Under the pieces are notes generated by a model. That model saw only the letters and a program-made list of their open reading frames with translations. It ran no database searches and was not told the DNA's origin. A stretch of 64,000 nucleotides of DNA from Amphiscolops sp. MND2022. Lineage: Eukaryota. The position numbers and the translations under genes were made by a program. The stretch covers positions 31,744,001 through 31,808,000 of the forward strand of contig OZ076418.1 of NCBI GenBank assembly GCA_964187785.1. The letters are read 5' to 3'. Of this stretch, positions 1-51,335 are shown piece by piece; within the stretch, counting starts at the first letter, position 1; the number at the start of each line of letters is the position of its first letter.

Positions 1-2972
1 TTGTTGGAGAGTCCTAGATTGTTTTTATTGCCTTATTCTAGCCCTGTGGGCCTTGTACTAGTGTTTTTCCTGCGTGTCCTGCGTATTTCCGGGGTCTGAA
101 ACCGAAAATCGACAATTTCAGACAGTGTACCCCTTGTTTTTTGATAATACCTGTTGAAAATGTTAATCCGGCCTATCCGGAACTGGTTATAAAGGGTTTT
201 GTAGCTCTGTTTCAGTAAATTAGCAATGTATGGGGACTGGGAGGACGAGTGTTGAAGGCCCCAATTAGCTGACGACAGTGTGTGAGCACCTCCGACATCA
301 CACCTCCAGTACCCCTGTAGTTGCCGTATACCCACGTCAATCGGGTTATATTGCTAATTCTTGCTAATAATCGGCCCAAAAAGCATATTCCCAGGCCTGT
401 TCCCACTAAAATTAACTGGGGAAAATACCTTGTGGGTGTTTGGACCAGTTTAAAAAAATTTGAGCGCGAAAACCTTGAAAACAACACCATATATAGCTCA
501 AATACCGAATTTTGAGGTGTTGAAAGTTGAAATCTAGTAGAAAAGGATACGGCCAGTGGGAACACAAAAAAACGTTCCATCAGACCTACTAAGCCAGGAA
601 CAGAAAAATTTGCTGGGCTAAATTGTTGAAACATTGAGGAAATTAGCGATTTTTATAGAGAAAACATCAATTTTGGCCTAAAAGACCAAAATTGGTGAGG
701 GCAAAGCCTTGGGCACTTGTTCCCAAGCTCTAAGATCAGCCCAAAAACGTTGTTCCCGAGCTTGGTAGTACAAAACACTACTGCCAAGACAATTTTTAGC
801 ATTCCCCAATATAAATTGACACTTTAACTTCTGATTTTCTTTGATATACATAGACCTGAGTAGAGGACCCCATAGACCTGAGAATAATAACATCAAAAGT
901 AATAATTGAAATAACCCCACTCCCCTAAATAAAGTTGTCACACCTTCCTACTGTACTGTTAGAACCATCCTGAACATCTGGGAACCGAGAAACAAAAAGT
1001 TCCTAGGGAAAATACGTATTTTTCACATTGTTCCCAGAGTGTCAAAGGTGCAACTTGAAAATTATTTTGAGAGACGTTATTTGGAACCTGCCAGGTTTTG
1101 CTCGCCTATTTTCCGTTAGTATAGGGTATAACGTTGCAAACGCAGAAAACCGCGAGTAATTCCAACCAGTAGTGGCTGAGAAATAGCCGAAAACGCTTTT
1201 TTTTGCGACATTTTCGGAACACTGGAGTAGTGTCCCCAAGATAGGTCGAAATCTCTACTAGTAGGAGTAGCTCAAAACAGATTGCACCATCGTGTAGACC
1301 GCAAAAAGTTACGTTAGTAGTGTAGTTTTCGTAGCGCTACCATTACTAGTGATCGAGAAATCTTAGCCGCAGTTTTGCTCAAAAATCGTGTGGAAATTTC
1401 AAAAAAGAAATCGAATTTTAGTTGAGCATAGTGCAATACCTTCGGAGTATCCTAGCACTAAAATTCTTGCATTTTTGTACACACAGCACTAGATCCCGAC
1501 GATTTGTGCATTTTGAGCAGCTTGCTACTGCCCAATTTGGAGAAATTGACATTTTTGTGAATTTTGGCCCCAGGAAGTGACTAATAGGGTACATCATAGT
1601 TTTGTCAACTCGGATTGCGGAATATTGGCCTGGGCACCCCGCTATTTTGTTTTTCTGTTACGTGGGCATAATTCACGCTCGCATACAAAATTTCAGGTAG
1701 CTAGAAAGCCTAAAAGGCGAGTTCGACAGACTTTTGAAAACTTCACACCATAGTCGATTCTTCAAACAACATTCTGAAGCGACCCCAAGTCACGTATAAT
1801 CAATTTTGGCGCAACCGGCGGTGATTTTCCCACGACTTGGTCACAGTAGTATACCGTGTTATTTGTTCAGGTCGCTAGTAGCTCTAGAAGTGATATTCAC
1901 CTTCCCCAAGCGTGCACTTTGGCGAAAGAATTGCCGATTTTGAGAAATTTTGCGAAAAATTATACACTTTTCGTAGGTGTAGTTGCGAGTGAAGGTTTAA
2001 GCGACCCTAATTCTACACCAGGCATCCATAGCACGTCCCATTGAAGTAATCGGAATAGAGCTAGCTCAACCGTAAATTCTTGGGTTTGTCAAAAAGCTGT
2101 CTACGAGACATAGGAGTGCAAAACACAAAAACTGTATTTTCTCTCCCAACGACCACCAGGGTCACCTAAGTGCGAACTAATAGGAGCATTCACGTTTGCC
2201 TCGACTAAGAAGTGACGCGAGAGAGCTAGAACGCAATTAGGAGTTCTCTAGGAGACGTGGATAGTGGACGCGGTGCGTCTCGAGACAGAAAATTGAGTAT
2301 AGTAGCATCCGAAATTGTAAAGAACTGTGTTTCCATTGATCGTACTACGATCAGATTACGATAACTCTCTTGTTTGAAAGTGTCCTAACACATACTCACC
2401 CCCAAGGTCTAGTTCCCAACACCCCTTGTTGTAGCAACAGCACAGGTGCTCTCCTATTGAAAGTCAGTACGAATGACATAGTGTACGCTCCCAGAAGAAA
2501 AGCGCGGTGATTTCTTGAATAAATCCCTGCAAAGTTCTGATAGCGGGCCAAAACCTTTAGTTATCCCGACCACATAGCCCGTGGCTGGATAAAGCATAGT
2601 TTTGTGTGAGTAACTGTAAAAAAAAACTTAAAAAGCTTAACTTTAAATTTGCGTAGAATAACTATCTCCAGTTAGTGGGGAAACAAACCTTTCTGTTCTG
2701 ATTAGTGGTGACTAACACCAGTGCATGTAATCTTGACTTAGTGCATGTAATTAGGAGTGTGAAGTTTATGACAGTCAGCTGATCCCGAAATAGAATCAAG
2801 AGGGCGATCACGAGCTACAAACTCCAGAACCTAACAGTACGATAGTTTAGTTAGAATATCTGAGAAAGAGATATCAAAACCTCCATTTTGAGTTGCCTTT
2901 AATTCAATTTGTTGAAGAGAAGGAGTGAGTAAAAGACGAAAGAAAATCTAATTTAGTTGAGCTGCAAAAACT

Positions 2973-5531
2973 GTGCAAGTAAAAATGAGTTTGAGTGAGT
3001 GGGAATATTTGTTATTCGTGAGTGAGACATCATTGGAGTCTAGTGAATTTCATGCTACCAACCCGTTCGCGAACAACATAGAAGAGTTGCATACCCTAAG
3101 TACACAAGCTGAAATAGCACCGTTAGATATGATCGCCGACCTGTTTTTAGACGACGTAATGTCAGATAACGTGTCTAACAGTGAGCAAAATTCGCAAATT
3201 GCGCGTACAAGCCAAGCAAATTCCTCAAAGATGTCCTTTGATAGCACCGAACTTGCTAATGAAACTCCCATGAACCATACCAACGTATGGCCTCCTCTGA
3301 ACACTTCCGTGATTGTTACCGGGGACTGGCCGAACTCGAATAGAGAAGTAGCTACTAGCTCGGATATCAGTAAGTGGGTTGAGAATATGAATGTGGGCAT
3401 GACTTTGGGAGAAATCACCCCTCACCTGGGCACGAGCGCGGACCCACTGGGTTCCGGAGTACCAGTGTTTGATAGTAATAGAAATACACTGGGTGACACT
3501 GCGATAGCTCCTCCGGAAAGTCAGCCGGGAAAGCGGAAGACCAGAAAAGGAGTGACTCTCCAGAACTATGCCTCCACTACACCACCATTGCTGGGTCCCA
3601 GCACCTTACAACTGGAACGCACGGCCACGCCCCAACATTCCGATGTCGGCAATGCAGCATCCCCAAATTCGATGATCGCCAGAGGTATCAAAGAAACTGA
3701 AGCCATACGAGAAGATTTTGGACGTAGTATAGAACAATTGAAACGAGTCCACGTAAAGTTAGCCCAGGAAAACACTGACCATGTCCGTCGGGCAGAAGTT
3801 TTGGTGATGGAAGTAGAAGAGTTACGAAAGGAGGTGAGTGAGATCAAGATGGAAGGACGAGTCAACCAGGGCAAGATAGAAACGTCCGTGGCATCAGTCA
3901 AGGACCTGACGGAAAAACGTATATCGGAGATGACGGCAATAATGGTGCAAAGAGATCGGCAAGCGGATGAGCGCCTAAAACACATGTCCGAAATGATGCA
4001 CCACAGAGATTTGGATGTCGACAAACGCATGGTGGACCTCATGACTACGGTCCAGGATTTAACCCTAGGGGTGAGGACCGTAGTGGCGACGATACCAAAC
4101 CGTCCCTCACCCGTGCCGGTGGCACCAAACTTTGCAGACATACAATCTACGAGTGCGTTTCCCAGTCAGCACCCCTCCCATCGAGAAGTTGCCAAACGCC
4201 AATGTGTGACGAAACCGGATCAGACAAAACAGCCAAAGTTACAACCACCCGCAGCGTACAAGCAGGTGCCGATGAAAACCCAATTGTCAACAACCACTCA
4301 AACTGAAGTACAGCGCTGTGACATATCAGGCCCTCCCTCATTCGACCCATATGCTAGAGGTGCCTCAACGACTGGAGATTATTACTCAGCGGCCAGTGAC
4401 CAAAGGCACAGTAACATGAAAACAGCATCAGGAAGTACCGAATATCAAACTGCTGTTTCGTCAATTCTTGGCACAAAACGCTCAATGTTACCCCATAGTA
4501 ACGACCAATTACGGCCATTGGCCTCTAGCACGCAAAAGAAGACAATCTCGAGAAGGAACCTGAACACTGGAACGGTGGAAGGAGCTGCCAAGGACAAGGA
4601 CAATGCTCCGAACGCTATAGACAGCCAAGCGTTGGCGGAAGCAATAACCACCGCGATGTCCAAAGGTCTGGAGCCATTATTAGCAGCCAAAGAATCCAAG
4701 AACAAACCTACCAAGTATCGTGGCACACGCGATGGAATCGTGGATGGCTGGCTAATGCTGATGAGGCGTTACCTGGAAAAAGCCCATGCAAAAGACACTC
4801 CTTTAGACAAAGCATGGACCATAGTGGAGTTCCTAGAAAATGAAGCACGGGACTATATTACGAATAAATCGGAAGCGGAACGCGATACTGATGAAAAAGT
4901 CTTCGCGCTGCTAGCACGAAGATTTGGAACAGGATCTAATAAGATCCAAATACAACAACAATTCCGTACACGTAATCAGTCCCCAGATGAAGACTACATG
5001 CAATACCTTGACGCATTGGAAGGTTTGCGCAGCCAAGGTTTTCCCAACGAGGAAGTTGCGGTGAGGCGCTATGAAATTATGCAGAAAGTCATCGAAGGGG
5101 TACGAAGCTATGAATTGAAACGAAACCTTGCACTCATGTATGCACAGGAACAGTATGTGGACACACCCCCAACTGTGGAGGCCTTACGATTCACGGTACA
5201 ACAATACCTGCGTATGCGTGGTTCGACACGTTCGGAAAATTATCCTGCACCACAACAACAACAACAGCCGCCTGTCGCAGCGAACCCGCAAAACCAAGCA
5301 CAGGCAGAAGCCCCCCAAGCGCCCAACGCCCAGCAACTCCCACAACAACCCCCAGCTTTCCGACAACAACCGCAGCGAACATGTTTCAACTGTGGAGACC
5401 CTTCACACTTTGCAGCTGATTGTCCTTTGAAAGACGGAGCACGGAAACCAGTACAGCAAATAGTTAATTCGTGTCGCACGAACACAGCTGGAGAATGGGT
5501 GTGCCCATCGAACCCCATGCGGCATGAATGA
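2973..5531 (+). CDS. gag: Gag, element 1 (first ATG at 2985)
   Basis: 852-aa ORF; coiled-coil region; retrotransposon-gag-like core KPTKYRGTRDGIVDGWL...EARDYI...RRFG; Q/P-rich linker; zinc knuckle CFNCGDPSHFAADC. Confidence 0.9.
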   Translation: MQVKMSLSEWEYLLFVSETSLESSEFHATNPFANNIEELHTLSTQAEIAPLDMIADLFLDDVMSDNVSNSEQNSQIARTSQANSSKMSFDSTELANETPMNHTNVWPPLNTSVIVTGDWPNSNREVATSSDISKWVENMNVGMTLGEITPHLGTSADPLGSGVPVFDSNRNTLGDTAIAPPESQPGKRKTRKGVTLQNYASTTPPLLGPSTLQLERTATPQHSDVGNAASPNSMIARGIKETEAIREDFGRSIEQLKRVHVKLAQENTDHVRRAEVLVMEVEELRKEVSEIKMEGRVNQGKIETSVASVKDLTEKRISEMTAIMVQRDRQADERLKHMSEMMHHRDLDVDKRMVDLMTTVQDLTLGVRTVVATIPNRPSPVPVAPNFADIQSTSAFPSQHPSHREVAKRQCVTKPDQTKQPKLQPPAAYKQVPMKTQLSTTTQTEVQRCDISGPPSFDPYARGASTTGDYYSAASDQRHSNMKTASGSTEYQTAVSSILGTKRSMLPHSNDQLRPLASSTQKKTISRRNLNTGTVEGAAKDKDNAPNAIDSQALAEAITTAMSKGLEPLLAAKESKNKPTKYRGTRDGIVDGWLMLMRRYLEKAHAKDTPLDKAWTIVEFLENEARDYITNKSEAERDTDEKVFALLARRFGTGSNKIQIQQQFRTRNQSPDEDYMQYLDALEGLRSQGFPNEEVAVRRYEIMQKVIEGVRSYELKRNLALMYAQEQYVDTPPTVEALRFTVQQYLRMRGSTRSENYPAPQQQQQPPVAANPQNQAQAEAPQAPNAQQLPQQPPAFRQQPQRTCFNCGDPSHFAADCPLKDGARKPVQQIVNSCRTNTAGEWVCPSNPMRHE

Positions 5532-8500
5532 TGACTTAATGCCCGCAACCCTACCAGAACAAGGAACATCAGCATTTTGTGTTAATTGTGGTCATGTAGG
5601 CCACGTGACATCTGATTGTATGACGCCTCACAATGTTGCAACGAAAGAACAAGTAAAAGCGGCGTGGTACGCCCCGGCCGCAAACTCAACAGACTTTTGC
5701 GATTCAGAGGATCAAATAAGGGTGATCTCGACTTCAGAAGACGGAGGCCCATCACGCCCTGTGGTTGTAACTTGTGGTGAGAAACAAATCTTGACGACAC
5801 TTGAGGCACCAGCGCCTGACTGTACTGAAACACTAATATCCATCCATCTGTTGTTATCCGCGGAACAAAAGGCGCGTCCAAATCTCACATTAGCACAATT
5901 GAAAGGAGAACTGTGCCGCAATACCAGCTTGACGATAGCTTCGCGACCACTACCCCACTTTACCAGGAATGATGAGACCAAGCTGGCCCAGATACAGAGA
6001 GTGAAGACAATCGCGCCAGTCCCCGTAGCGATCACGGTTGATGGTGTGGACATGAGGTTTGATGCGATTGTTGTCCTGGAAGGACACTTTCCGCAAGGCC
6101 TATATCTGGGCAGGCAAGAACTGCGCTGTTATAGCATTGGAGTGCAAGATGCACAAGGAGAGGCCCAGATTGATGAGCGAGCCTCGCTAGTAGTAGCATT
6201 CGGAACTCCTCTGCAAAAGCCAATACCACTTTTCGGCATGATTGACACCGGTTCAGTAGTTTCTATCCTTTCATTTAGTGCCTACAAGAAGATTGCTTCC
6301 CAGCACACGCTGAGCCTATCACCATATGACGTTGAACTCTTCGCTGCCATTGGCAAAAGCATCACCACCGTGGGCATAGCCGAAGATGTAAATTTCCAGC
6401 TCGGCGGATACACTCTGAAGACCAACTTTGTAGTCATAGCCGATCATATTGGGTCAGAGGATTTCCTCTCGGGTCGCAATTTCTTGCGCACATACAACGT
6501 GTTAGTGGACCTGACAGCAATGAAAGTGACTATCCGCGACCCCAAAACACCTCGAATCTTTAAAGCCACACATGAGGTAAGCGAGCACGAACCATCGTTT
6601 GTAGTTTCCACTGAAGACGTAATACTAGGTCCATTCGAAAGGAAGATTGTGCGCGCGAAAATCATCACGCAACAACCTGACATTTTCCTGTTTCGTAATG
6701 TAACGGTCCAGTCATGTAGCATGAAGTCCATTTCAGTCTTTGTTTCAGAAGATACACTGACTTCGGTGGGAGAAGGAGGTATAGTATTTTTAGCCATCCG
6801 AAACCAAACTGATAAAGAACAAGTGAAAATCAAAGCACAAACTGTTATTGGCAAAGCGGCGCTTACCACTTTTGTATTGAACTCCGTTCTTATGCAAACT
6901 GAAGGTGAAGCTTCGAAGCTTTCTACCGAATATGTAAATCAAGTACATAGAAACTTTGATATGGACACCAGTTCAGAATTCAGTTCCTTTGCCCAAAACT
7001 TTTTATCTTCGACCGGACCGTCTGAGGCAGGTTTATCAGATAATGAAAAGCGCAAAAGGACAGATCCACAGCTGCTAAAAGCAATCCCAGGCCCTGACCT
7101 CTCTTCCGTCCTTTCTCCATGGGGGGAAGAGGCGAGAAACAAGTTAGAAACTATATTAAAAGAGTATGAAGACCTATTCATGAAAAATAAGTCTGACATA
7201 GGTAGGTGTAAGATTGCAAAGCACAAGATAGAGCTAGAGCCGGAGGCTATACCACACCGAGAAGGAGCTAGGCGAATGTCCCCTGATAAGGCGGCAAAAG
7301 CCAATCAGGAAGTGCAAAATTTGCTGGCCCTTGGTCTGATACAACCCTCCTACTCTCCGTGGGCCAGTGGCATAGTCATGGTGAAAAAGAAATCAGGCGA
7401 GCTTCGCTTTTGCTGTGACTTCCGCCCGCTAAATGATGTAACAGTGAAGGACGCATTTCCACTACCCAGAATCGATGAAAACCTCTCGAGGATTGGGAAT
7501 GCAAAGATCTTCACGAGCATCGATTTGGCGTGGGCCTTTTGGCAAATTCCACTGAAGAAGCGTGATCGCAGAAAAACGGCGTTCGCGTGTGAACTTGGCC
7601 TGTTTGAATGGCGGCGCATGCCCTTCGGGCTATGCAATGCATCGGCCACTTTTCAGCGATCGATCACGAGAGCTCTACAAAAGATCCAACAACGACATGG
7701 AAGCGTTGTCATGGCATACATAGATGACATAGTGATTGCGACAGAAACCATTGAAGACCACTTGGAAAGAATCAGAGAAGTGTTCGTGTGTCTCAGAGAA
7801 GCAGGTTTCAAGATGCGAGCAGAGAAATGTGACTTCATGCGCACTGAAACCAAGTACCTCGGAAGAGTAGTTTCGGCCGAAGGCATAAAGCCTGACCCGG
7901 CTGCTGTTAGCAAAATCCAAGAATGGATGCCCCCCAGAAACAGAGAAGAATTACAGAGCTTCCTTGGATTTGCGAACTACTACCGAGATTTCATTCCTTT
8001 TCATGCTGCTAAAGTGCAACCTATGCAGGAGTTATTAAAGAAGAACCAACACTTCTACTGGAAAGAAAGACACCAAGAAGCGTTCGATGCAGTAAAGCAA
8101 GCATTAGTCGACGCCACGGCTTTGGCAGCGCCTAACGAAGAAGGACGTTTCGTCTTAGACACGGATGCCAGTGCAGTTGCTATAGCCGGCATACTACACC
8201 AAGAGCAACATAACAATGGGAAAACCATTCTTCGTCCCATTGTTTATGGCAGCAAGTCACTGACTAAAACACAAATGAAATATGGCGCCCCGAAGCTGGA
8301 AATGTATGCAGTATTCTATTTCATCGAGAAATTTCATTCCTACCTTGCAGGTCGGGAATTCACGCTGCGCGTGGACAACCAGGCTCTCTCGTGGCTGAAG
8401 ACATATTCAATGGATCAAGCCATGATTGGACGCTGGATTGCGCGCCTCGACCAATATCATTTCAAGACGATCCACAGACCGCGCACACAAAATAGAAATG

Positions 8501-11500
8501 TGGACGGTCTTAGCAAAAGGACCAATGACTACGTACATCGGGAGAAGATCGTGGAAACTCTACCAGAAGTGAGCAAGGGATTCAGCTTCATGCCCCAAAA
8601 AGACTACGAAGAACTCCCCACTGTGCCTTATATCGACGAACATGGAAAATTTATTCCAAACCATCCAGAGCTTCCACCAGACGCTCGAGCACAACTTCCA
8701 GTGCTGTACATTTTGAAAAAGCCACCAAAAGAAGACCTAACCTCAGACCCGTCCTTGAGTTCCATACCATGGTACCCACAGGTGCAATGGGAAACAACTC
8801 CGACTTTGGCCGAAGACGACAGACCGAATTGTATCCTTAGCGTAACAACCAAAGTGCCGGCGGCACGTCTAGACACCACCCAACGTGACCCAGCACTGCG
8901 TAGATTGCCTACGCAGTGTCAAGAACAAGCTGACGTCCTCAGGCTAGTCGGGACTGAGCTTCACGAGCATCAGTCAACAATGCGAGGATTGAAAGATCTT
9001 CATCTAGCTCAAAACAGAGATATACATCTGCTAGCGCTGAAGAAACTCATGAAGAACGAGCCATTAGAGGATACGTTGTTCCCCGAAGACGTGCAGGACT
9101 TTGCCAAACGGTACTTTCACCAGAAGAAAGACTTACTGTTCCTGAATCAGAATGATATCTTGTGTGTCAACTACATTCCGCAGCAACGCGCGATGCACAT
9201 ACGACCGTGTATGATCGTCATGCCCCAGCTATACCAACACGAAATCTTGTACAGAGCGCACGACGAGTCAGGACACCAAGGCGTTGGTAAAGTGTTGGCA
9301 AGAATCCAGGAGCGCCACACTTGGCCAGGCATCAAGCGTGATGTCGTCAATCATATTAAGCACTGCTTAACATGCCAACAGACGAAACATCCCGCTGGGA
9401 ATCCCTGTTATCCGTTACAAAGTATCAACAGCAGCAACTTTAATGACCTAGTGCAGTTCGACCATTTGAAGTTGTGCAAAACAACGTCAGGAAATAATGG
9501 ATTGCTAGTCGTCATCGACCATTTCACTAAATTTGCAGAGGCAATCCCATGTGCACACGACGAATATGACGCCCAGACGACTGCAAAGATTATCCTGAAC
9601 AAATGGTTTGCAAGACATGGCACTCCTGCCAGGATGCAATCAGACAATGCCACCAATTTTACTGCTGAGATAGCTCAAGAACTGATGAAAGCTTCGCAAG
9701 TAAGCAAAATAACGTCTACTCCAGCTCATCCGAGAGGCAATGGTTTAGTGGAACGTCAAAACCGAACATTACTGACCTTGCTCCGAGTCTATACGTCTCG
9801 AAGATTGCTTGACTGGGATGAACACATAGACGGAGTCTTGGGCGCTTATAATTCAACCAGACATGCAACGACCGGATTTTCCCCGTATATGCTCCAACAT
9901 GGCGCAGAAAAATCCATACCACTCTCGTTTATATACCCAGAATTCGCAGCGCGAGAGTTTGAGTCCAAAGAAGAATTTGTGGAGCACCTACTTGCTCGAC
10001 AACAAGAAATCCTTGAACTTGTTCGCCGAAACACACACCAGGCGCAAATACGACAAAAACAGAAGTTCGACAAGCATTTGACAGCAAAAGCTCACGCAGT
10101 GGGTGATGCTGTTTGGGTTTTCTGCCACATAATTCCTAAAGGTGGCACCCGCAAACTCCTTCGTGCCTGGCGTGGACCTCACAAGGTCACAGATGTATTA
10201 CAAGATGGAAGATTATACGTTTTGGATACAGGAGAAAAGGTTCACTTCGAACGCCTGAAGAAGCATGTGCCTGCGCTGTGGGATTGGGCGGCACATCAAC
10301 CCTTTGGGTTAGACCAGAATGTTGCCATCATCGCAGACCCATACGTGGAGGAAAGTAATGAGGAAATAACGTCAGACATATCACGTGACTCATTTCTTCC
10401 AGAACAACTGCCAGAGGCATCATTCGAGATGGAACCGACCCCGCCCGTTCCCCCAAGCACGATTCAAACACGCACTCAGTCTGCTTTGGAACGGGGAATC
10501 CCTCGAAGACGATTCAGTCATTTTGGATACCCTTCTGAGTCGGAATCCGACCAAGAACAAATGGGTCAACCCATTGAAGAGCCACAACAACCAATGATCT
10601 ACCCTGATATCGACGATTTAGAACCACTGTATTCAGATCAAGAGGAGGTCAGGCCAGAACCAACACCAAGTCTGATACCCTCGCCATCAGGAACATCAAC
10701 ACCATTGCTCTCAAACCCAGCTTTAACCGACACATTGAGCAATTTTCCACTATTCAGTTCTCGAGCTGGTAGCTCGGCAGGACTACAAACTATCGAGGAA
10801 CCCGAACCCCAAGAAAGAACTGACAGAGAAATTCCAGAACCCGGACACAGCATGGAAACATCGCCATCATCGGGGAGAACCGCGAGTAGAAGAGGCAGGC
10901 CAAGAGGCAGACCTCCAAATCGTAGAAGAGGAAGTGCCAACTCATCAAGCAGAACACTTGCAAGCACGCACCGACCGTACACCAGATCAAGAGGCAGCTT
11001 GCGAACCAGAGCACAATCTCAAACCTTGGAACGTGCAATGACACTACCCAACATTGCAGAAAGTTTATCATCAGAGCAACCAGAAGCGGAACAAATAACA
11101 ACCTCACGAGCACCACCTTATTTGCTGCGACGCAATAGAACTCCTAGATATCGCTGCGGAACATGTGGTTCCCGTAACTGTAGTTGCGTCAACCTAATTA
11201 GTGGAAAACCACCGGACAAGCGATTGGCCCGGGGAGTAGACGCTCCTGCCCCAGACACAGCTGTTACTGAAACAACAGAAGACCACATGCAACACATCCG
11301 AAACATACAAGCTAAGGACCAAGAGGTTCCACAAGTACATCATGTTGTGATTACCGTGGAAAAGACCTATTCGAGCATTGGACCAGCCGTGGTCCCACCC
11401 CTGGAAACCACACTAAAAGCCATGCAAGAAACATCTCCATCAGACTGCTCCACCTACCGATTTAGGGAATGGACATGGCACGAAAAGAGTGGATTAGAGT

Positions 11501-12591
11501 TCACGTTGACCGCAATTATACCCCCACTCCCACCATCGATGATGTTTGGAAGAATAGAACCAAGTGACACGCGAATAGCAATGGTCCGCTGTATCACCGC
11601 GCGAAGACTATCGCAGCAATATGGTGTAACCTCCCCTCCTGGAGATGTGTATCACCCAACGGCTGGTTGGTGGCTTTTGGTCACCTCTTTGGACGAAACA
11701 TCACTAGTGACTCCAGGAACTTTACTGATTTGCTTGGAAAATTTGCGTACGCTTGTAGATTTCGAGGACACCTTATGCTTCCATCTAGCAGATATTTATC
11801 GTGGGAAATTCCGCAGTCAACATTGGTTACAACTACTAGCTATCATCTTTTGTCGCCAAGCCAAAATACGCCTGTTAGACAAACACACGTATACATTCGA
11901 GAACCCAGTGACCGTGCTGGAAGCACTCTCCGTAGTTCACGATTGGTCTTGCACGAACTTGGGAGACAGACCTTTACGCAGAACAGTGTGGCAAGACCGT
12001 AAGGCCATTTTGGATCATCTCACACCAATTCAAGACAATCAAAACACAGTCACGGGAAAACTATTGATAACGCATCCGAAGATCAAACCGAACTATCTAT
12101 CATGGATTTATTACGAAGAAACTGACATTTTGCAAGCCAGGGGTACCGTAATAATATGCTGTCCGGCAGATCTTCTGTCACATTCAGCAATGGCGCGCTA
12201 CGTCATCAGGGAATATGGCCAGGAAGAAATTTTCCGACTACGCCCAGCCGTAGGAAAAGCTATTCACCTCACCAGATCACCCGCAACGCCGTGGAATAAC
12301 GAAATGTTCCTGCTAATCACCAGAGCCTCTAGTAAACACCCCATATTACATGATGTGCTACATCTGTGCCTGATAGACCTGGTGCAGAAGCTCACACGAG
12401 CACAAATCATCCGTATCCATCTTCCTATCTATGACCCTGAAAGATCAATCAACATGCTACCAGCTTGGTATTCAACGTTGAAAGATCATTTTATTGATTC
12501 CAATATCGACATAGTCCTCCATGATAGGGTGTATGTATCAATTGCGTTAGTGAAGACACACCATAACCATGTAAAATACAAATTTGACTGA
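5524..12591 (+). CDS. pol: Pol polyprotein, element 1 (second CCHC, protease, RT, RNase H, integrase, long C-terminal extension)
   Basis: CVNCGHVGHVTSDC; protease MIDTGS; RT IDLAWAFWQ and YIDD; RNase H LDTDAS; integrase HDESGH...CLTC, QFDH, SDN, VERQN, WRGPH. Confidence 0.96.
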   Translation: MNDDLMPATLPEQGTSAFCVNCGHVGHVTSDCMTPHNVATKEQVKAAWYAPAANSTDFCDSEDQIRVISTSEDGGPSRPVVVTCGEKQILTTLEAPAPDCTETLISIHLLLSAEQKARPNLTLAQLKGELCRNTSLTIASRPLPHFTRNDETKLAQIQRVKTIAPVPVAITVDGVDMRFDAIVVLEGHFPQGLYLGRQELRCYSIGVQDAQGEAQIDERASLVVAFGTPLQKPIPLFGMIDTGSVVSILSFSAYKKIASQHTLSLSPYDVELFAAIGKSITTVGIAEDVNFQLGGYTLKTNFVVIADHIGSEDFLSGRNFLRTYNVLVDLTAMKVTIRDPKTPRIFKATHEVSEHEPSFVVSTEDVILGPFERKIVRAKIITQQPDIFLFRNVTVQSCSMKSISVFVSEDTLTSVGEGGIVFLAIRNQTDKEQVKIKAQTVIGKAALTTFVLNSVLMQTEGEASKLSTEYVNQVHRNFDMDTSSEFSSFAQNFLSSTGPSEAGLSDNEKRKRTDPQLLKAIPGPDLSSVLSPWGEEARNKLETILKEYEDLFMKNKSDIGRCKIAKHKIELEPEAIPHREGARRMSPDKAAKANQEVQNLLALGLIQPSYSPWASGIVMVKKKSGELRFCCDFRPLNDVTVKDAFPLPRIDENLSRIGNAKIFTSIDLAWAFWQIPLKKRDRRKTAFACELGLFEWRRMPFGLCNASATFQRSITRALQKIQQRHGSVVMAYIDDIVIATETIEDHLERIREVFVCLREAGFKMRAEKCDFMRTETKYLGRVVSAEGIKPDPAAVSKIQEWMPPRNREELQSFLGFANYYRDFIPFHAAKVQPMQELLKKNQHFYWKERHQEAFDAVKQALVDATALAAPNEEGRFVLDTDASAVAIAGILHQEQHNNGKTILRPIVYGSKSLTKTQMKYGAPKLEMYAVFYFIEKFHSYLAGREFTLRVDNQALSWLKTYSMDQAMIGRWIARLDQYHFKTIHRPRTQNRNVDGLSKRTNDYVHREKIVETLPEVSKGFSFMPQKDYEELPTVPYIDEHGKFIPNHPELPPDARAQLPVLYILKKPPKEDLTSDPSLSSIPWYPQVQWETTPTLAEDDRPNCILSVTTKVPAARLDTTQRDPALRRLPTQCQEQADVLRLVGTELHEHQSTMRGLKDLHLAQNRDIHLLALKKLMKNEPLEDTLFPEDVQDFAKRYFHQKKDLLFLNQNDILCVNYIPQQRAMHIRPCMIVMPQLYQHEILYRAHDESGHQGVGKVLARIQERHTWPGIKRDVVNHIKHCLTCQQTKHPAGNPCYPLQSINSSNFNDLVQFDHLKLCKTTSGNNGLLVVIDHFTKFAEAIPCAHDEYDAQTTAKIILNKWFARHGTPARMQSDNATNFTAEIAQELMKASQVSKITSTPAHPRGNGLVERQNRTLLTLLRVYTSRRLLDWDEHIDGVLGAYNSTRHATTGFSPYMLQHGAEKSIPLSFIYPEFAAREFESKEEFVEHLLARQQEILELVRRNTHQAQIRQKQKFDKHLTAKAHAVGDAVWVFCHIIPKGGTRKLLRAWRGPHKVTDVLQDGRLYVLDTGEKVHFERLKKHVPALWDWAAHQPFGLDQNVAIIADPYVEESNEEITSDISRDSFLPEQLPEASFEMEPTPPVPPSTIQTRTQSALERGIPRRRFSHFGYPSESESDQEQMGQPIEEPQQPMIYPDIDDLEPLYSDQEEVRPEPTPSLIPSPSGTSTPLLSNPALTDTLSNFPLFSSRAGSSAGLQTIEEPEPQERTDREIPEPGHSMETSPSSGRTASRRGRPRGRPPNRRRGSANSSSRTLASTHRPYTRSRGSLRTRAQSQTLERAMTLPNIAESLSSEQPEAEQITTSRAPPYLLRRNRTPRYRCGTCGSRNCSCVNLISGKPPDKRLARGVDAPAPDTAVTETTEDHMQHIRNIQAKDQEVPQVHHVVITVEKTYSSIGPAVVPPLETTLKAMQETSPSDCSTYRFREWTWHEKSGLEFTLTAIIPPLPPSMMFGRIEPSDTRIAMVRCITARRLSQQYGVTSPPGDVYHPTAGWWLLVTSLDETSLVTPGTLLICLENLRTLVDFEDTLCFHLADIYRGKFRSQHWLQLLAIIFCRQAKIRLLDKHTYTFENPVTVLEALSVVHDWSCTNLGDRPLRRTVWQDRKAILDHLTPIQDNQNTVTGKLLITHPKIKPNYLSWIYYEETDILQARGTVIICCPADLLSHSAMARYVIREYGQEEIFRLRPAVGKAIHLTRSPATPWNNEMFLLITRASSKHPILHDVLHLCLIDLVQKLTRAQIIRIHLPIYDPERSINMLPAWYSTLKDHFIDSNIDIVLHDRVYVSIALVKTHHNHVKYKFD
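11560..12535 (+). other. Two tandem macrodomain-like folds (TARG1/OARD1 type) at the Pol C-terminus
   Basis: Domain 2 TDILQARGTVIICCPAD..AMARYVIREYG..EMFLLITR..LCLIDLVQKL..IHLP..DIVLH follows the TARG1 pattern (GDLF..LAHCISED..IAVLFKKKFG..YYLITK..SLEAMK..LSMP..KITVY); domain 1 is a weaker second copy; both conserved in element 2. Confidence 0.68.
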
Positions 12592-12898
12592 ATCACTGTG
12601 GCAAAAAAAATATGGGAGGCCACTCGTCCTGTTCTTAGCATATGTGTTGTTTGAGTCAATCCCTGAACTAGGTTTTAACGTGAATTGTCGAATCTGTTTT
12701 ATCTTATTGTCCTTTAATGTTTATCATATCAATTGCATTCATCAGCAATAGTATTTTAGCTCAAATTGACGTCTGTTGTTTTCTCTTTTCTAGTTCAGTC
12801 CTGTCAATTCCCATGCACTTGACGCAGCCAGTCGTATATCATCATATTTGCAGTATATCCACCATAGTCATTTATCCAAGGAGCTACCCATCTCTTTA

Positions 12899-15800
12899 AT
12901 GGACCAATCGGCTAGAACCCGCATGCCAACTCCATCAACAACAAGCTCGCAACCGAGCACCAGCAGAATGGACCAATCACAACCGCCAACGATTGCCACG
13001 CAAGAAACTCTCGTGTCCTCGCTGCCTGTCGAAGAATCTCAAACCAGAATTGACCAGCTTGGTCTGGTCCAATCGACCCTACAAGAGGCCCCTTCTCCAT
13101 CACTGGTGACCGGGATTGCCATACTAATTGCTCAAATGCAGTCTCTCGAAATACACCCGGACTTTACCCTCTCCATATCAATTGGAATTGGATCTTACCG
13201 CAGAACTGCGGAATTCCACAATGGCGCGTGGCAAGGTCATGATCTCACCCACCATTTTGATGACCACAGATCGCACCTGAGATATGGCGAGCCTAATAGG
13301 CCTCCCATGGAGCAGCAACGACGTTTTCAAACGAACCTGACGCAAGCACCTGCAATATCGTCGATAATTGCCCCTGAGAGCGCCCGCGACTGTCAATCAA
13401 CGCAACCACCACCTACACAGCAATTCACATGCCTTTTGCCAACAGTACCTCCGCCGATATTGACACTCCCACCATCATCCGCCCCAATTAGTGTCAGGCG
13501 CCTGGAAGAGAACAACAAACTCATGCTCCCTTCTTCTTTCAGGGGGGAAGGGGTAGAAGAAGCGCACACGAGCGCGCAGAACGCTGAAAATGCCACCCAA
13601 GATACAAACCAAAGACCGAGAACCATAATGATGCGGAACCCGCTCGACGTGCCCATCATGACAGATATGATCGGATTCCAAGACTCTTACGATGCCTTGC
13701 TACCTTCAACGTCGCAGGACCCACATCACCTAATAGGTTTTCAGGCCGACCCAGAACGCCAAGAACAACAGAAAAAGCAAGAACTAGCAGAAAGGCAAGC
13801 AGCCAAGGCCCCTATCGATCTCCGCGACGTATTGAATCGAAAGGAACAAAGCAAGATCGAACAGATAGTTCAAAAGAAAAGGGCCAGAGGCTTAGCCAAT
13901 TCGGATGCAACGAACTCCAGCCCGAATCCTTCCCCAGTGCAACAGCCGGAGCATAGGCGAGTGCGATTCTCTAATGAGCTCGTATCGCAGACAGAGGCAC
14001 GACAGCTTGACATTGCTGCCAGAGACGCGGTGCGTCTGCAGCGAGAAGCGAAATCAGAGAACCCAGACTCAGGATTGGATGTACAGAAATTCGAAACAGC
14101 TACCAGCAAAGGAAACCCAGAGGATGTGGAGAACTTCGAAAAAGCAACGATCGGAGTGCATTACTTGAGGCCCGTAAAGAAGCCAAAACTCCTTCTGGAC
14201 CGCATTCCTCCCTGGTTCGAGAGAGTAAGGGAGAATCTTCATAAAGACAAGTCATCATTGGTGAGGCCACTCCCGTCCAAAGTAAAATTAGCCATACAAC
14301 GACCAGCGAGATACGATGACCAACTGATGAGAAGCCGTGATTTCATGAGGGACGTAACAACCTCGCTCCCCATGGGCAAAGAGATGCTGCAAAAGACAAA
14401 GATTGCCTTGTTCATGGACTCTACGATGAAAGCAACGGCGAACATGAACAACACCCTCATGGATGTTCGCGTGATGAACTTGCCCTGCACATCGCTAGAG
14501 GAAATGGCCGAGGTGACCTGCAAGGTCTTCGGTCCCACCGCCAACCACACAGAGACAATTCCATTCCCCCCAATCCTGATATATAGCAATATGATAGACC
14601 ACTTGGCTCTTCGGGGAACGCAGAAATACTTTGAAGGGGGCAACCGTAGACTGACGGAAGAAGTAATGACAGGAGAGGTAGTTGCGTACGTCGAAGCAAT
14701 GAAGAATGTGATCAGGCGGGTGCAGCGAATGAAGCCCGTCGTAGGGGTAGTCTTTGTATCGCCCCCGGGATACGTATACTTACCTAAATCACTCCAGCAA
14801 CTGTTGTATCTGATATCAGAAGCATCCTACTCACAGAATTTGTCATTCTACATAATGCGTCAACCTGGCGTCCGGGTGAGAACTCTTATTCTGCATTCTT
14901 GGCGGAAATCTCGAAAGCCTTGCAGGCTTGTACCGGATACGAAGGAAACTCTCAGTTATTGGCCGATGATGCTACTGCCTTTGACTTTGGCATGCAAATG
15001 GCGCACCGCACCTTTGATGAGAATGGAGTACGCCGAGTCAAGGAGCCTAATGAAAAGGAACGGGCAAACATGATTGACAACGGATGGTTTGAAAGGAGAG
15101 ATGAGTCAACGCTAGATGAGAGGACGCACAACGCTAAATTCCACAAAGAGCTGCTAGCTCTCTTCAAGAAGACAGAAGGAATAAAACAAACTCGGACCGA
15201 CGCGACTGTTTTTCCAGTGGCGATACAAGCGATCGACGCAAAGCCCAACATGGTTTCCCCCACCCTGGTATTGTTAACAGTATTAGCTCAGAAGACAGTG
15301 CAAGAAAACCAAATGAACCCAGAGCATTCTTACCAATCTTGGCATGAGACGCTGCAGGTCACCTTGAATGAAACAGCACAAAGTCATGGAATTCCCTTCC
15401 CCATATTCTTGTATAATATCTCGTCATTTTGGGTACCAACGATGGTGCAGCGTGAAAGCAGCTTAGATGAGCAACAAGTCAGACTGTATGTAGAAGCAAT
15501 GCAGAGGGCCACAATTGCTGAGATCCTGGCCTACTTGATGGCCGTTGGTCTAGGCGCCGTCTACAAGGGCCCAGTGCATCTGGTGCAGAGATTGGTCCTA
15601 GCTAAAGCCAACTCCTGTCTACTCAGTTTTCTCATATTCACCAAGAACCAGCGGAATTGGATTAACGCCATTCTAAACACCCTGGACCCCGCTGGCGCTT
15701 TGAAGTTGCGCGCCCAGCTCGCCGAGAATATCGAAACACTATTGGCTTGGGTTTACTCAGCCTGGGTCAATGTCTCTGGCGTGATGAGCACTTTAGACGA

Positions 15801-17104
15801 CTCGCTGAGTCAAAGACCCAATAGCAATAACCTGCCAGGTTTCTTATTCCCCTCGCAGATAGCCAGCCTCATGTTGGTAGAAACTGAAGATCTAGTCCCC
15901 ATGATCGCACCCATAGTGTGGCCTATATTCGGTTCAATGATGGCCCTGAGATACCCCACACAGCCGCTTAGAGTTGCCGCAAGAGCACCTACATTATCTA
16001 TTCTACATTTTGTGGACCCTGAAGACGACGCCAGACAACCGGATTTTCGCCAACTTCCGACCACCAATGGCATACACGATTATTAAAGACAAGAAACAGG
16101 TCGAGTACAATTTCAGTGCCCTGATCCGAGCCAGAGCGCGGTGTGCTGTCCCTATGTCGCTAGAACTTCATCCAGTAGAATGGTTGCACGCTCCTGTAGA
16201 ACCCAGCACTGGAGCATTGCAAGGTTTTACCAGCTGGGATGAGCCAGGTATTCTCCGAGTACTAACCAACGCAGAACGACGCCTGGGTGGACGAAGAAAA
16301 GGCTCCACACCAGAAAGACTCCAGCATCGAATAATACAAGATGTATCCCGAATGTACAACCCTCGAGCGACACCGCAAGCTGATACAGCCAAAATCCTGT
16401 CTGACACTACGTATTGGGCAGACCCGCCAATAGTGGACAGAATGATCTACCAAGGGTTTCAAATTCTGAGGGCGACAGTTCCGAAAATTGCAAGAGAACC
16501 CAATAGATAGACCTTGCCTCTGATTGAAGAGATGCCGAGCAATCCACAAATGGCCATGGAAATCTTCTTGAGTCTGATAACCAAGCAGAGGGACGAAGGA
16601 AATACCGTATATGACAGTTATTTAAATGCAATTGGGACTTTCAAAGAAATATTTTTCCGATATGGACGCCAAGACCTCGCAGACCAGCTGCCAGAACTAA
16701 GCCCAGCGGGCTCGACCTCAACGAGACAGGCAGCAGGGCACGAGGAAGTTTCTACTGCTAAAAATACATCAACTTCCATGGTGTCAACCTCAAATCTAAT
16801 CAGCATTGCAATAGCTGCAGCACCAACCAACACCGATGTATCCATCCATAACCCTGAAACAGGTAACCCAACTACAGTCAACACCACCAATGCTACTTCC
16901 AATGATCAGACAGTACCGTTAGAAGCTTTGGAAGTCACGCCCACGTCGTTGACGAGAACACTAGCAGCCGATATCGAATTAGAATTGAACGAACTACCTA
17001 GCTTGAGTCAGCAAAACCTGCCGCCATCAGAAGTATTGACCGTATCATTAAATGAAGTGCTGCAAGATGACGATACTACCATGGATGACACTGGCCATGA
17101 ATGA
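12899..17104 (+). pseudogene. ORF3 of element 1 (~1400 aa reconstructed): accessory protein with central SGNH/GDSL-hydrolase-like domain
   Basis: ORFs 12848-15073, 14899-16086, 15974-16510 and 16514-17104 join by two frameshifts (~14855, ~16035) and one in-frame TAG (16508-16510); blocks are homologous to element 2 ORF3. Confidence 0.75.
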
Positions 17105-17571: not shown

Positions 17572-18280
17572 TGTAACGTTCACCAGTCATCACCAAATTT
17601 TCGATGAAAAATTCGATCAAGGACCAGAAAGTGTGCGAATCAAAATGGCCGACCTGGCAGGTCGTTGAAATCAAAAAGAAGCAAAAAAAACGACACCCCA
17701 CACCGACCCAAAAAAGAAGAAAAGACGCTGATACGACGAGGAAGAACAAGAAAAATGCTCGGATTTGTGTCATCTCCCCAGAAAAGTGCGTTTTTAATAC
17801 AAAAACGTTCTGAGATCCAGATATCCCACAGCGAAGAAGATGAAGAAAATCGCGAATTCAATAGAAACATACCAGAAGTGCCAATCTTATTTAATTCTGA
17901 TGTCATTAGTATTGATTTGCAGATTTATGATGATGTCAGATCTGCCAGATCCTTGTGATGGAGTATTTAAACGTTATTTTCTGAAATAGAATGCATTTCG
18001 GCTAGAACCCTGTTTTCGGACCTCGGGAGTATGTAGGACCGCAGGAAGTCTTTAGGAACGTTTTTACATGCTTGTGGGACGTGTCCGGACTTTGAGTGTG
18101 CCGGCACGTCGCCACGGAGCTCTAATAAGAGGAGTCTCCACGGTGTTTTGGAAAAGTCCCTAGGAGACCTTTAGGGACGAAAAACTGGTATTTAGGCTTG
18201 TTATAGGACTATGGTCTCCTGTCTAGGCAACCTAAGTATTGTCCCAGTTCTGGTATGTGCGTTACTTGCTTGACGTTACA
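17572..18280 (+). repeat. 3' LTR of element 1 (709 bp)
   Basis: Starts TGTAACGT and ends ACGTTACA (8-bp terminal inverted repeat); preceded by PPT. Confidence 0.85.
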
Positions 18281-19727: not shown

Positions 19728-19742
19728 CAAAAACACACTTTT

Positions 19743-19759
19743 TGGCGACCACAGAGGGA
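19743..19759 (+). other. Primer binding site, probably tRNA-Arg(UCG)
   Basis: TGGCGACCACAGAGGGA; the 3' end of animal tRNA-Arg(UCG) predicts TGGCGACCACGAAGGGA. Confidence 0.65.
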
Positions 19760-30837: not shown

Positions 30838-31118
30838 CGTCATGAGTATTCTGGTTATGGGTAATTTTGTTGATGGAGTACCTTAAGTCCTCCTACGTAA
30901 TTGAATCTGTTATCGTTGCAACTATTTTTGTTCCTTATTGTTAGCTTAGTGTTAGTTTGAAATACTCGCATGTAAGTTAGCTGAGCCCCCTTAGGGAGCT
31001 CGTTTCTTTTTGCTTAAGTGGCAGTGAGCCCTATGCTCCGGCCGTAACGTGTAAAGTGATCACTAAATTATTTGACTCTTTGATTGATGCACTTATATTT
31101 TAGACCTATGACAACAGT

Positions 31119-34100
31119 ATGGCGTTTTGTCCGAATGCCTCTTCGACACTCTCAGTGCCTACCAGCACTCCTAGAACCCAGGAAGCTGCTCGAGCGCAGC
31201 GGGTCAGCCAAGTGCAATGTTTAGAGGAACGATTGAGAAACGGAATCCCGACTGTCACCGTTGCAGGAATAGCTGCAATGCTGGCGCAGTTAGAGACGCG
31301 GCAAGTGCTGCCAAATGTCGGTGTCTTTGGTCGTCGAGGTAGCGGGTTTCCAGCGTACCATGACCTATCGAAATGGTACCTGGGATGGTACAATCTCACT
31401 CACCCGTTTTTGGATGACCGATCCACAGCCATCTACGGACCCAGTCAGAACACTGTATTTGAGCAAGAAGCATCCTTGAGGATGCTACAAGCTGCCTCGG
31501 GGACACCACAACTATCCCAGCCTCCGCAGCTAAGTGCTTTTTAACATCAAGTGCCCAGGCCGGTCGCGAAAACACCAGGGTATTCGGGTTCTCCTGCCTT
31601 TGGAGCACCCCGAGTGCCAACCTTGGCATCACAAACCTCTCAGAGTGGAACACAGACTGCTCGGGAGCCTTCGGGCTCCCGCTTACCTCCTTTGTCCATC
31701 CTAGATTTGACTCTCAGAGATTCCGGAGAAGAAGCAGTATTCGTGGCTTTGCAGGCTGTAGCCAATGACCCTGATCCTACTGATTTGTGCGAGCCGTTAA
31801 ACTGCGACTACCAGGGATTGCTGGCCTGTAGCAGGCTCCTGCGCAGTCCCCGAGGTCGCGCCACCTATCGAATCGGCACCTATGGAAGCTAGCGAATCGC
31901 AGTCACACTCTGTTGCAGGCCCAAGCTCTACTCCAGTTGAGGAACCAGGACGCAAAAGGTCGTCACAAGAGGTGACCAGTTCGGCCACCACTGCAGCCAG
32001 ACAAACAACGTCAGGAGCCCAACATGAGGAGCGTAGTGATTGCTGTGACACCAAGAACTGAACAACGAAGCTCCTCATCAGCACAAGTATCCATGAATGA
32101 GCCAATGCAAACCATTGAGTCAGAGGTTGGCAATATCTCCAGCTCTGTGCCCTCGGGCACTCCTTCGCCTTCGGCTGCACCAGTGGAAAGACCCGCCGAG
32201 CCGTTGCGACCTGCCTACCTACCACCGTCTGAGGACGTGTCTGGCTCAGTAGTAATGCGAGACTCCAGACACATTTGGGACGCTGCTGATTTCTTCAATG
32301 CGCAGATGGTCTCGATGAGGAAGCGCGCTCCCCCAGCGGTTGAAGATCAGAGGGTGGTGGATCAACACTCATAGTCGCCCATGTCACCCGTCCATTGAGA
32401 GCTCATGATGCTGATATGAGCGAACAGGCCTGGGAAATGCGTTCCCGGGAAAATCTCCATAGGGGGCGGCACAATTGCTTGGTTTTCTTGCTACGAAACT
32501 TGAACGAGCAGTTTCCCCTGCGCTACGTGTTGCGCGAAGGCGAAACGTGAGAGGAAAACACTAGGTTTGCACGAAACGTGAGGTCGCTAAGACCTTTATT
32601 CAAGAGTTTAGTGCAACGCAATCGCTGTTGTGTAGTGGTCGATTCCACGTTCAAAACTGACCTTCATGTGGTCGATCTATTGCCAAAGGTAATGGTTGTC
32701 ACCATGCCACTATCACGGATTCCAGAAATGGCAGGAATGGTTGTAGCAATGTTTGCGCCTCAGCTTATGGGCTCACTAAAGGAGCCGCCACTACAACGTG
32801 TGATATTTGCCAATATGATCGATCACATGGCGTGCGAAGGTCTGCTTGTAGAAGTCAACAGTACGATGCAGGATGTACAACATCCAGAGAGAGCAGCCCA
32901 GCTGCTGACCGTAGTGGCGAACGCCATGGAATTAGCCATGGAGATCCTTCGGGATCAAATAGGAGTGTCAGCACTGTCGTTTCTTCTCCTGGCTTAATGT
33001 TTAATGTGCTGGGAGAGGAATTTTCAGAGGTTCGTATACTTGTTATCCGAAGTGTGTAAGAGCAGGCGCATCGACGTTGCCATTTGCGCCCATAACCTGC
33101 GTGTCAACAACAAGGACTTGAGGCCTGCAGCCATGTCATATCATGGGTACCTGGCCGCAACTTCCTGAGTGCTGCAGTCAGTAGAACGCCATGAAAACGC
33201 CCAGAATTACTCCTGACCACTCCGATTTCTTCGATCATGGAATGAGAATGAGTCGACTTATGTTCGACTAGAATGCCCACTGGATTATGCGGGAAGCCAC
33301 TCCTGTCGAAAGAGAAGCAATGCACTGCCACAACTGGCTGATGCCAAATGCAACCGAGGTCCCCATTCGTGGAGACTTGACGGAAATGATCAAGTCGGAA
33401 AATGGCCATCGATGCGAGATGTCGAAAGATCAATTCTTAAATCCGTTTCGCTGCGGATACCGAGTCAATCAAGTTGCCCATTGGATTGAGATATATCATC
33501 GCTCAGGAAACTGTGAACTTGAACGCTCAGACTGAAGCCGGTGTGAAATGACGGTAGGGGAGGTAATAACGTTAGCACTACCCATGGGCCGCAAAATTTA
33601 CAGCTGGTCCTATAGCCATAATGTCGGAAGTGGCCGTGTCGACCTCATCCCATTCTACATATATCTAGTCCTGTCACAAGTACAGCTGCGTAGCCTGGTT
33701 CGCCTAGGGCATGTCTTGAGTGTCCCCAGATATACAGGATTACACGGCGCAGCTTTGGAGGATGTGTACCTCTCTGGAGCATTGGCTGTACTCCAAACTG
33801 GTCTACGCGTCAGGGCTGTTTGTCGGAGTTGATCAAGTGCAACCGCTACACGACCCTACAGACAGCTTCCCTGGGAGACTGCAGGATTCCCCATGCCACA
33901 GCAACTAGCCGACTTGACGTTGGCCGAAGTTGAAGACATGATACAGGTAGTGGCGCCTGTGCTGGCCCCTGTCTTTGGTCCGATCGACCTCGCTCGTTAA
34001 CCCACGAAACCCGTAGCCATGGCTGTACGAGTGCAGACGGCATCGATATATACTTACTTGCAAGGAGCGCATCCCATGAACTATCAGCGTATGCTGGATA

Positions 34101-43462: not shown

Positions 43463-43516
43463 CAGAAACTAATTTATTTCCTCCCGACATCACAGTTTTA
43501 GCGTCGAGGAGACTCC

Positions 43517-51099: not shown

Positions 51100-51335
51100 G
51101 ATTTGGAAAAGTACTGATTAATAACACTTAATTAAGTCGGATGACAAAAACATTAATTGAGGTTAGTCAATCAGCTAGTTGATTAATAAGTAAATCAAAT
51201 ATGGTTAATACCGAATTCGTGAAAAGGTTCACAAGGAAATCCGAGAATAAAATTGAACACAATTTCAAAGAGCGAATAAAAAACGTTTTCAAAATCGGAA
51301 ACTGAATATCTGTCCTTTCCTAATCCCACTTCAGG

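Follow-up and report, generated by a model that had tools for sequence, protein, structure and literature searches.

A giant Ty3/Gypsy element of Amphiscolops whose separate open reading frame after pol has a predicted SGNH fold, best read as a pseudo-esterase

Esterases are met again and again in retroelements that are not related to one another, where they may serve either catalysis or lipid binding. Among the described systems closest to the gene considered here, the Vesta1 long terminal repeat (LTR) retrotransposons of bdelloid rotifers end in TG..CA and carry a GDSL/SGNH domain as a separate open reading frame (ORF3) after pol, at the env position; a membrane role of that ORF3 is likewise a proposal (PMC5408684). 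The fold also occurs in the ORF1 protein esterases of non-LTR elements (CR1/L2, RTEX, Penelope), of which ZfL2-1, a small coiled-coil protein in a gag-like position, has an active Ser-His-Asp triad (PMC3905857), and in the OSK domain of the host gene Oskar, a part of a larger protein in which the fold is non-catalytic, the Ser is missing and RNA is bound (PMC10792757). Here we describe the ORF3 of element 1, a giant Ty3/Gypsy (retrovirus-like) element of about 19.1 kb in Amphiscolops sp. MND2022. It lies in the 64,000-nt stretch that we analysed as a whole and call the window (assembly GCA_964187785.1, contig OZ076418.1, positions 31,744,001 to 31,808,000 of the forward strand), and a second element of the window, element 2, bears a related and decayed ORF3. 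We conclude that ORF3 is a functional accessory gene family under selection, and that it very probably encodes a working pseudo-esterase rather than an envelope protein (Env).

An earlier, sequence-only reading of the locus regarded a dedicated giant ORF3 of this type in a Gypsy element as unusual, and Vesta1 makes clear that its novelty was overstated, since a GDSL/SGNH ORF3 at the env position had already been published (PMC5408684). The two systems nevertheless differ. In the present lineage an Arg stands at the position of the catalytic His, a domain of about 190 aa is set within a protein of about 1,400 aa, Pol ends in a putative degenerate macrodomain and the LTRs measure about 710 bp, whereas the Vesta ORF3s keep their catalytic residues and, as far as the available text describes them, are without coiled-coil and transmembrane parts, and Vesta elements bear a dUTPase and LTRs of 159-551 bp (PMC5408684). 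A Pfam scan found no dUTPase in element 1. GDSL derivatives without catalytic residues are noted in Athena-L (Penelope-like) elements (PMC5408684). The literature searched, which left most subscription papers and Repbase Reports outside, yielded no paper on an SGNH ORF3 with a His-to-Arg change. The present analysis adds a conserved acceptor-like site, a conserved hydrophobic segment, the putative degenerate macrodomain of Pol, 3-bp target-site duplications combined with TG..CA ends, and an offset primer site.

The SGNH fold proposed by the sequence-only reading is borne out by structure prediction. For a natural paralog, AlphaFold (AF2) models were made of residues 431-1272 and of residues 431-740, and the first 300 residues were modelled confidently (predicted local distance difference test, pLDDT, 90; predicted template modelling score, pTM, 0.89 in the short model). 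A VIA structural search of the model returned brain platelet-activating factor acetylhydrolase (1bwp) at Z 11.7 (root-mean-square deviation 3.5, 176 residues aligned) and a GDSL lipase (3p94) at Z 11.6. Forty-nine chains scored Z 8 or higher, and the best 50 structural matches were almost all SGNH or GDSL proteins by title. The aligned range was model residues ~69-260, and the fold-search rows spanned residues 17-262 only. Oskar OSK (5a4a) was among these matches at rank 46 (Z 8.2-8.3). The Foldseek probability was ~1, but its E-values were modest, the best of them (5e-4) being for a match with a designed scaffold. Profile methods contributed no recognition of the domain: even at E values as high as 10 a Pfam scan found no match to Lipase_GDSL and its relatives, nothing meaningful came from scanning ORF3 against Pfam and NCBIfam, searches of PDB sequences with ORF3's own profile found no SGNH match, the canonical esterases of ZfL2-1 type in the same genome had no significant profile match to ORF3, and ESM Atlas had no usable match for the SGNH part. 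A designed PPR repeat that the PDB sequence search returned was set aside as a chance match. On the AlphaFold, VIA and Foldseek results, the ORF3 core is predicted to adopt an alpha/beta SGNH fold.

The residues of the predicted active site do not follow the canonical scheme. All four motifs that the sequence-only reading quoted in SGNH order are present, and the two read as 'G' and 'GxND' blocks prove to be non-canonical. The tallies cover 48 of 58 aligned sequences, those in which 100 or more residues fall within the domain; the other 10 rows were dropped. Block I is x-D-S-T, with the Ser directly after strand E72-76 of the model and kept in 35/36 sequences. At the Gly position of block II, in a register taken from a weak local alignment, Cys (18) and Leu (18) predominate and Gly is found in 3 of 45. 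Block III reads N-x-x-D-H: the canonical Asn slot is hydrophobic (Asn in 0/47), an Asn two residues earlier (46/47) could serve instead, Asp is present in 44/47, and the His seen in 40/47 is Asp in the family of library protein P0187 and Tyr in P0051. Block V is a hydrophobic residue followed by R-P, with Arg in 35 of 38 sequences and His in none, where the canonical esterases of the same genome have D-G-I/V-H-P ahead of the last helix. This block had gone unread in the window copy, in which it lies just past the first frame break and reads W-R-P rather than x-H-P. When six deep families that share 21-49% identity are compared, 64 positions do not vary. D507, S508, N564, D567, P622-P623-G624 and R665 belong to these, and neither His nor Cys stands at any of the 64. 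With Arg at the catalytic-His position and no invariant His in any of the six families, the earlier label of 'hydrolase' is not supported, and the best reading of the modelled domain is a pseudo-esterase with a remodelled but conserved pocket. If this is right, a fold kept by strong selection at 21-28% identity, with its catalytic His apparently lost, serves as an experiment of nature whose outcome speaks for binding rather than cutting. Canonical SGNH esterases (G-D-S, G-x-N-D, D-G-I/V-H-P; L096-L120) are also encoded in the same genome, as several multicopy families that probably sit in other mobile elements.

That ORF3 is maintained as a gene is seen most directly among its copies. The 1.07-Gb genome was searched with the central ORF3 domains of element 1 and element 2, and all 150 of the 150 scored candidates were matches for either query, out of 2,706 and 2,521 first-look candidates respectively, which are not copy numbers. 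Intact copies, which the sequence-only reading had suggested seeking, were found: by hand count, the frame stays open for 1,400 codons or more in 33/150 and ~62/150 matches. Selected long copies were each compared with one of their number (L021) by the Nei-Gojobori method. The ratio of nonsynonymous to synonymous divergence (dN/dS) was 0.25-0.41 in 5 close pairs and 0.10-0.12 over the whole ORF in all 7 between-subfamily pairs; in 3 more pairs dS was saturated and gave no ratio. By part, the between-subfamily values were 0.07-0.10 for the SGNH domain, 0.05-0.09 for the helical region and 0.09-0.14 for the N-terminal block, and three pairs of the element-2 family gave 0.10-0.19. A dN/dS of about 0.1 between subfamilies, at dS above 1, indicates purifying selection instead of the neutral evolution that the earlier reading had named as a possible refutation. 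The ORF3-bearing lineage is moreover abundant and recently active, with LTR pairs 98.4-99.6% identical.

Relatives extend beyond these copies. They include sequences as distant as 21-28% identity, part of which come from outside the window's own genome. A library-wide protein search found 363 ORF3 homologues at E <=0.001, of which the best 150 were inspected. At least one library homologue is identical to own-genome DNA, so many of the others may derive from the same genome. However, two divergent families on short contigs are not in this genome (best identity 29-33%), and the ORF3 family is thus present in other DNA. A search of metagenome and viral contigs with library protein P0010 found no locus, and no longer homologue appeared at 2,698-5,000 aa, the only size range searched. 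One divergent homologue, P0125, carries the database label of a hypothetical protein from a bacterial metagenome-assembled genome; its contig measures 816 bp, and it is probably host DNA contaminating the bin rather than a transfer.

The window copy of ORF3 is itself broken. Its location was correctly given by the sequence-only reading, as were the two frameshifts and one stop: the open frames run over 12794-15073, 14788-16086, 15950-16510 and 16511-17104, with breaks near 14850-14860 and 16040-16056 and the stop at 16508-16510. The claim that the ORF is shared with element 2 also holds, since the N-terminal, SGNH-like and C-terminal blocks are homologous (tblastn E 9e-20 and 1e-17; for the N-terminal block, E 5e-18 through a paralog). 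In element 2 the 3' part of ORF3 forms a 1,735-bp tandem array (window 33578-46418) of ~6 copies with 97-99% identity, after which comes a 3' LTR in duplicate (42745-43469 and 45648-46371), and library protein P0001 has a similar internal duplication of the C-terminal half.

Outside the SGNH domain, ORF3 consists, in order, of an N-terminal block, a low-complexity linker, the SGNH-like core with its helical cap, a helical region, a hydrophobic 19-mer and an acidic tail, and its linkers are long and rich in P, S, T and Q. The C-terminal 550 residues are modelled as mostly helical and partly at low confidence, with pLDDT of 80-94 at residues ~390-520 of the long model and under 50 for much of 535-800. 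Med5 and other helical-scaffold leads from the Atlas for this part scored under 0.9 and were not accepted. The 19-mer is the top hydropathy window in 6/6 families (Kyte-Doolittle 1.6-2.3), is rich in Pro and lies ~400 aa ahead of the C-terminus. Upstream of ORF3, a pyrimidine tract with YAG is present in the window copy and in 20/20 other copies shown, from three family groups, as well as in element 2 (31098-31103), and this conserved acceptor-like site suggests an env-like spliced message.

Given these features, we tentatively favour a role for ORF3 as a non-catalytic adaptor that binds lipids or membranes on behalf of the element's particles, although our preference falls short of confidence. 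The main support is the precedent of the ZfL2-1 esterase, which binds anionic phospholipids as well as liposomes, whereas oligo-A RNA is not bound, and whose active-site mutants still bind liposomes (PMC3905857). Because ORF3 has Arg at the expected catalytic-His position, membrane binding rather than lipid cutting seems likely. Splicing at the conserved acceptor would give a subgenomic RNA from which ORF3 is translated independently of Gag-Pol, in line with the spliced messages that are typical for ORF3s of LTR elements (PMC5408684), and the ORF3 product would stay at the cytosolic side. The remodelled pocket, with its invariant Ser, Asn, Asp and Arg, could accommodate a ligand that is anionic or acyl in nature, for instance the head group of a phospholipid, and not turn it over, while the conserved hydrophobic segment would dip into the membrane. 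The helical region and disordered linkers might then contact Gag particles or the ribonucleoprotein (RNP), and particles would thereby be placed at the membrane for assembly, transport or vesicular exit.

Several points weigh against this interpretation. The residue register derives from motif spacing relative to the canonical esterases of the same genome and from predicted secondary structure, and an hhalign comparison of ORF3 with those esterases was not significant (probability 0.5%). A pure binder would not need the Ser that is nearly invariant here (35/36), and near-identical copies in the residue tallies mean that independent events are overcounted. The hydrophobic segment is Pro-rich, has low model confidence and may be a buried helix, and the paralog's SGNH region has 31 K/R against 25 D/E, which makes it no more than mildly basic. 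Furthermore, the one well-known dead SGNH domain, that of Oskar, binds RNA (PMC10792757).

This last point leads to the alternative that survives best, a credible though unlikely one in which ORF3 is an Oskar-like RNA or RNP scaffold. Its Arg-lined pocket would bind RNA and, together with the linkers, build granules in which the element's RNA is sorted or is sheltered, for instance against silencing by small RNAs. OSK sets a precedent as a non-enzymatic, RNA-binding SGNH domain (PMC10792757) that was found among our structural matches, the long P/S/T/Q-rich linkers of ORF3 are as such a scaffold would have them, and a His-to-Arg change would suit phosphate binding. However, OSK ranks beneath many esterases, its Z of 8.3 against 11.7 for the top match is no better than that of ordinary esterases, and it has Asp at the nucleophile position where ORF3 has Ser. 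The retroelement SGNH domain that was directly tested did not bind oligo-A (PMC3905857), and an RNA scaffold leaves the conserved hydrophobic segment unexplained.

A counter-defence function, which we consider improbable, would have ORF3 and the Pol tail act together as decoys or blocks of host restriction through protein contacts, with the SGNH domain as a scaffold only. The sequence-only reading's description of a macrodomain-bearing Gypsy stands with the qualification that the Pol tail is macrodomain-like and degenerate. The match was made by hhalign to canonical macrodomains of the same genome (Table 1); Pfam, NCBIfam and PDB profile searches of the Pol tail gave no macrodomain match. Canonical copies have glycine-rich loops (M-S-A-G-I-A and I-G-C-G) that are replaced here, and a possible, weaker second macrodomain upstream (11450-11930) has an hhalign probability of 1%. 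Pol appears to end in one degenerate macrodomain, perhaps two in tandem (window 11404-12543). Two apparently dead enzyme folds thus occur together, the Pol tail adjoining ORF3 in 31/32 fetched ORF3 loci, in a lineage whose abundance and recent activity would fit evasion of host control. Against this, dN/dS is low in every folded part, the pairwise comparisons show no arms-race divergence, and no host partner is known. Other elements of the genome carry canonical-looking macrodomains in long ORFs (L158-L178).

We also doubt that ORF3 is an active but rewired enzyme (an esterase, acyltransferase or deacylase), in which the Ser would be paired with the block-III His, with the Arg or with a base from another chain. 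The retention of Ser, Asn, Asp and, in most sequences, the block-III His is what such an enzyme would show, and an SGNH triad may be permuted or be supplied jointly by more than one chain (PMC10792757). However, that His is replaced in the P0187 and P0051 families, the protein has no invariant His at all, and the oxyanion Gly is mostly lost.

A true but unrecognised envelope or fusion glycoprotein is very improbable. It would account for the env position, the acceptor site and the single hydrophobic segment, but no signal peptide was found in six families (N-terminal hydropathy <=0.7 and negative in 5/6; an upstream exon could add a leader), there is no invariant Cys, and Pfam, PDB and viral fold searches returned no fusion-protein match. 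The sequence-only reading was therefore right that this is not a typical Env and that a signal peptide is missing; its further statement that no obvious transmembrane anchor is seen has to be qualified by the conserved hydrophobic 19-mer in 6/6 families, a candidate membrane-inserting segment. Finally, a neutral passenger or captured host gene fragment, as the broken window copy and the rotifer ORF3s that show no departure from neutrality within a genome (PMC5408684) might have suggested, is refuted by dN/dS of ~0.1 at dS above 1 and by 1,400-codon frames open in dozens of copies from several families.

Element 1 belongs to Ty3/Gypsy by its LTRs with TG..CA ends, polypurine tract, primer-binding site (PBS), order of gag, protease, reverse transcriptase (RT), RNase H and integrase, and Ty3-like RT, whose best match to a solved structure is to that of Ty3 (E 1.5e-75, against 1.2e-47 for the next distinct protein). 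The protease motif, and in the integrase a GP-H variant of the GPY/F motif, are read from the sequence. The length of 19.1 kb follows from the positions of the two LTRs (Table 1), the 5' LTR lying just left of the window; they differ by 10 mismatches and 1 gap, and the internal part is 17.7 kb. A leader of ~3 kb (window 1-2960) precedes gag, and Gag is extended at its N-terminus by a long segment. Two other copies (on contigs C9 and C2) have Gag and Pol in one frame; in the window copy the frames differ, and this shift is probably a lesion because those two copies share a single Gag-Pol frame. The sequence-only reading's 'third ORF' is accordingly a separate ORF after pol, as described, and the second ORF of the copies with a single Gag-Pol frame.

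Table 1. Positions of features of elements 1 and 2 (window coordinates, except where contig coordinates are stated)
Feature	Position	Strand	Remarks
5' LTR of element 1	G000:C10:31743185-31743892		contig coordinates (G000, the window's own genome); just left of window
gag part of element 1	2961..5531	+	zf-CCHC E 4e-5; PNMA E 0.003; CX2CX4HX4C knuckle, PNMA-like capsid region
pol of element 1	5464..12591	+	RVT_1 5e-36, RT_RNaseH_2, Integrase_H2C2, rve; protease-like, RT, RNase H, integrase, long C-terminal tail
Putative degenerate macrodomain, Pol C-terminus	12085..12543	+	hhalign probability 89%, E 2.4e-6, 126 columns
Splice-acceptor-like site	12764..12793	+	pyrimidine tract and YAG ahead of ORF3
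ORF3, broken copy	12899..17104	+	ATG 12899, stop ends 17104; uninterrupted natural paralogs 1,364-1,541 aa
Conserved N-terminal block of ORF3	13049..13309	+	~87 aa, W-x-G-x-D/N-L
Predicted SGNH-fold pseudo-esterase domain	14393..14946	+	AlphaFold model, structure searches, alignment
Active-site positions, window copy	Ser 14420-14422; Asn 14588-14590; Asp-His 14597-14602	+	
Arg at His position, window copy	14869-14871	+	after first frame break
C-terminal region of ORF3	14947..16710	+	mostly helical; conserved in all families
Conserved hydrophobic 19-mer	15892..15948	+	invariant P-I-F-G then R-Y-P; candidate membrane-inserting segment
Polypurine-tract-like segment	17556..17571	+	
3' LTR of element 1	17572..18280	+	709 bp, TG..CA
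ORF3 of element 2, decayed	~31119..35099	+	family ~22-28% identical in ORF3; 3' part tandemly repeated to ~45000

The integration pattern of the lineage is unusual for its termini. We sampled 30 LTR loci in each of two ORF3-bearing families; ends were resolved in 23 and 29, and solo LTRs and LTR pairs made up 15 and 14 rows. Two rows with a duplicated flank, one repeat of the same insertion and one misclassified 5' LTR were dropped, leaving 25 insertions. A 3-bp target-site duplication with TG..CA ends is present in 23 of them, in both families (one of them, within a run of A, is ambiguous), and of the remaining two, one has 4 bp and the other, the window copy, matches at 2/3 bases. A PBS usually lies 0-3 nt from the LTR. 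Here a PBS-like TGGCG motif follows the 5' LTR at 15 nt (11/11 copies) or 16-17 nt (5/5), after a spacer that ends in a T run; the spacer was not found after 3' LTRs and occurs also at window ~19730-19750.

According to the available text of Kojima 2025 (PMC12440569), 3-bp duplications are made by Troyka and duplications of 4-6 bp by other LTR elements, and the latter statement is not matched by this lineage. Troyka/Kuafuortervirus shares with it the 3-bp duplication and the single Gag-Pol frame but has CG..CG ends, a CX2CX8-10HX4C knuckle, no GPY/F motif, LTRs of 100-400 bp, an internal part under 7.7 kb and, as far as these sources describe, no envelope ORF (PMC12440569, PMC11673190), in contrast to the TG..CA ends, CX2CX4HX4C knuckle, ~710-bp LTRs, 17.7-kb internal part and Ty3-like RT found here. 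Because of these differences in termini, knuckle and size, we rejected membership in Troyka. No TG..CA lineage with 3-bp duplications was found in the literature searched, as delimited above. The combination departs from the published Troyka-only rule (PMC12440569) and points to a changed integrase geometry, and element finders that require duplications of 4-6 bp would miss a very abundant family. A more far-reaching picture, which we regard as improbable taken as a whole, is that of an undescribed Ty3/Gypsy lineage of 18-19 kb that has its own integration geometry (3 bp with TG..CA, independent of Troyka), a primer site set off from the LTR and two enzymes that have been disarmed, and in which the pseudo-esterase would replace Env, anchoring particles cytosolically for vesicular movement from cell to cell without a fusion glycoprotein.

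The 64 kb of the window contain no tRNA genes. A 22-bp tandem repeat lies at window 47232-47779, with ~18 overlapping copies listed. On the minus strand, a third and unrelated Gypsy-like element (51195-63478) encodes gag, protease, RT and integrase, and has 1.6-kb direct repeats that are 98.9% identical.

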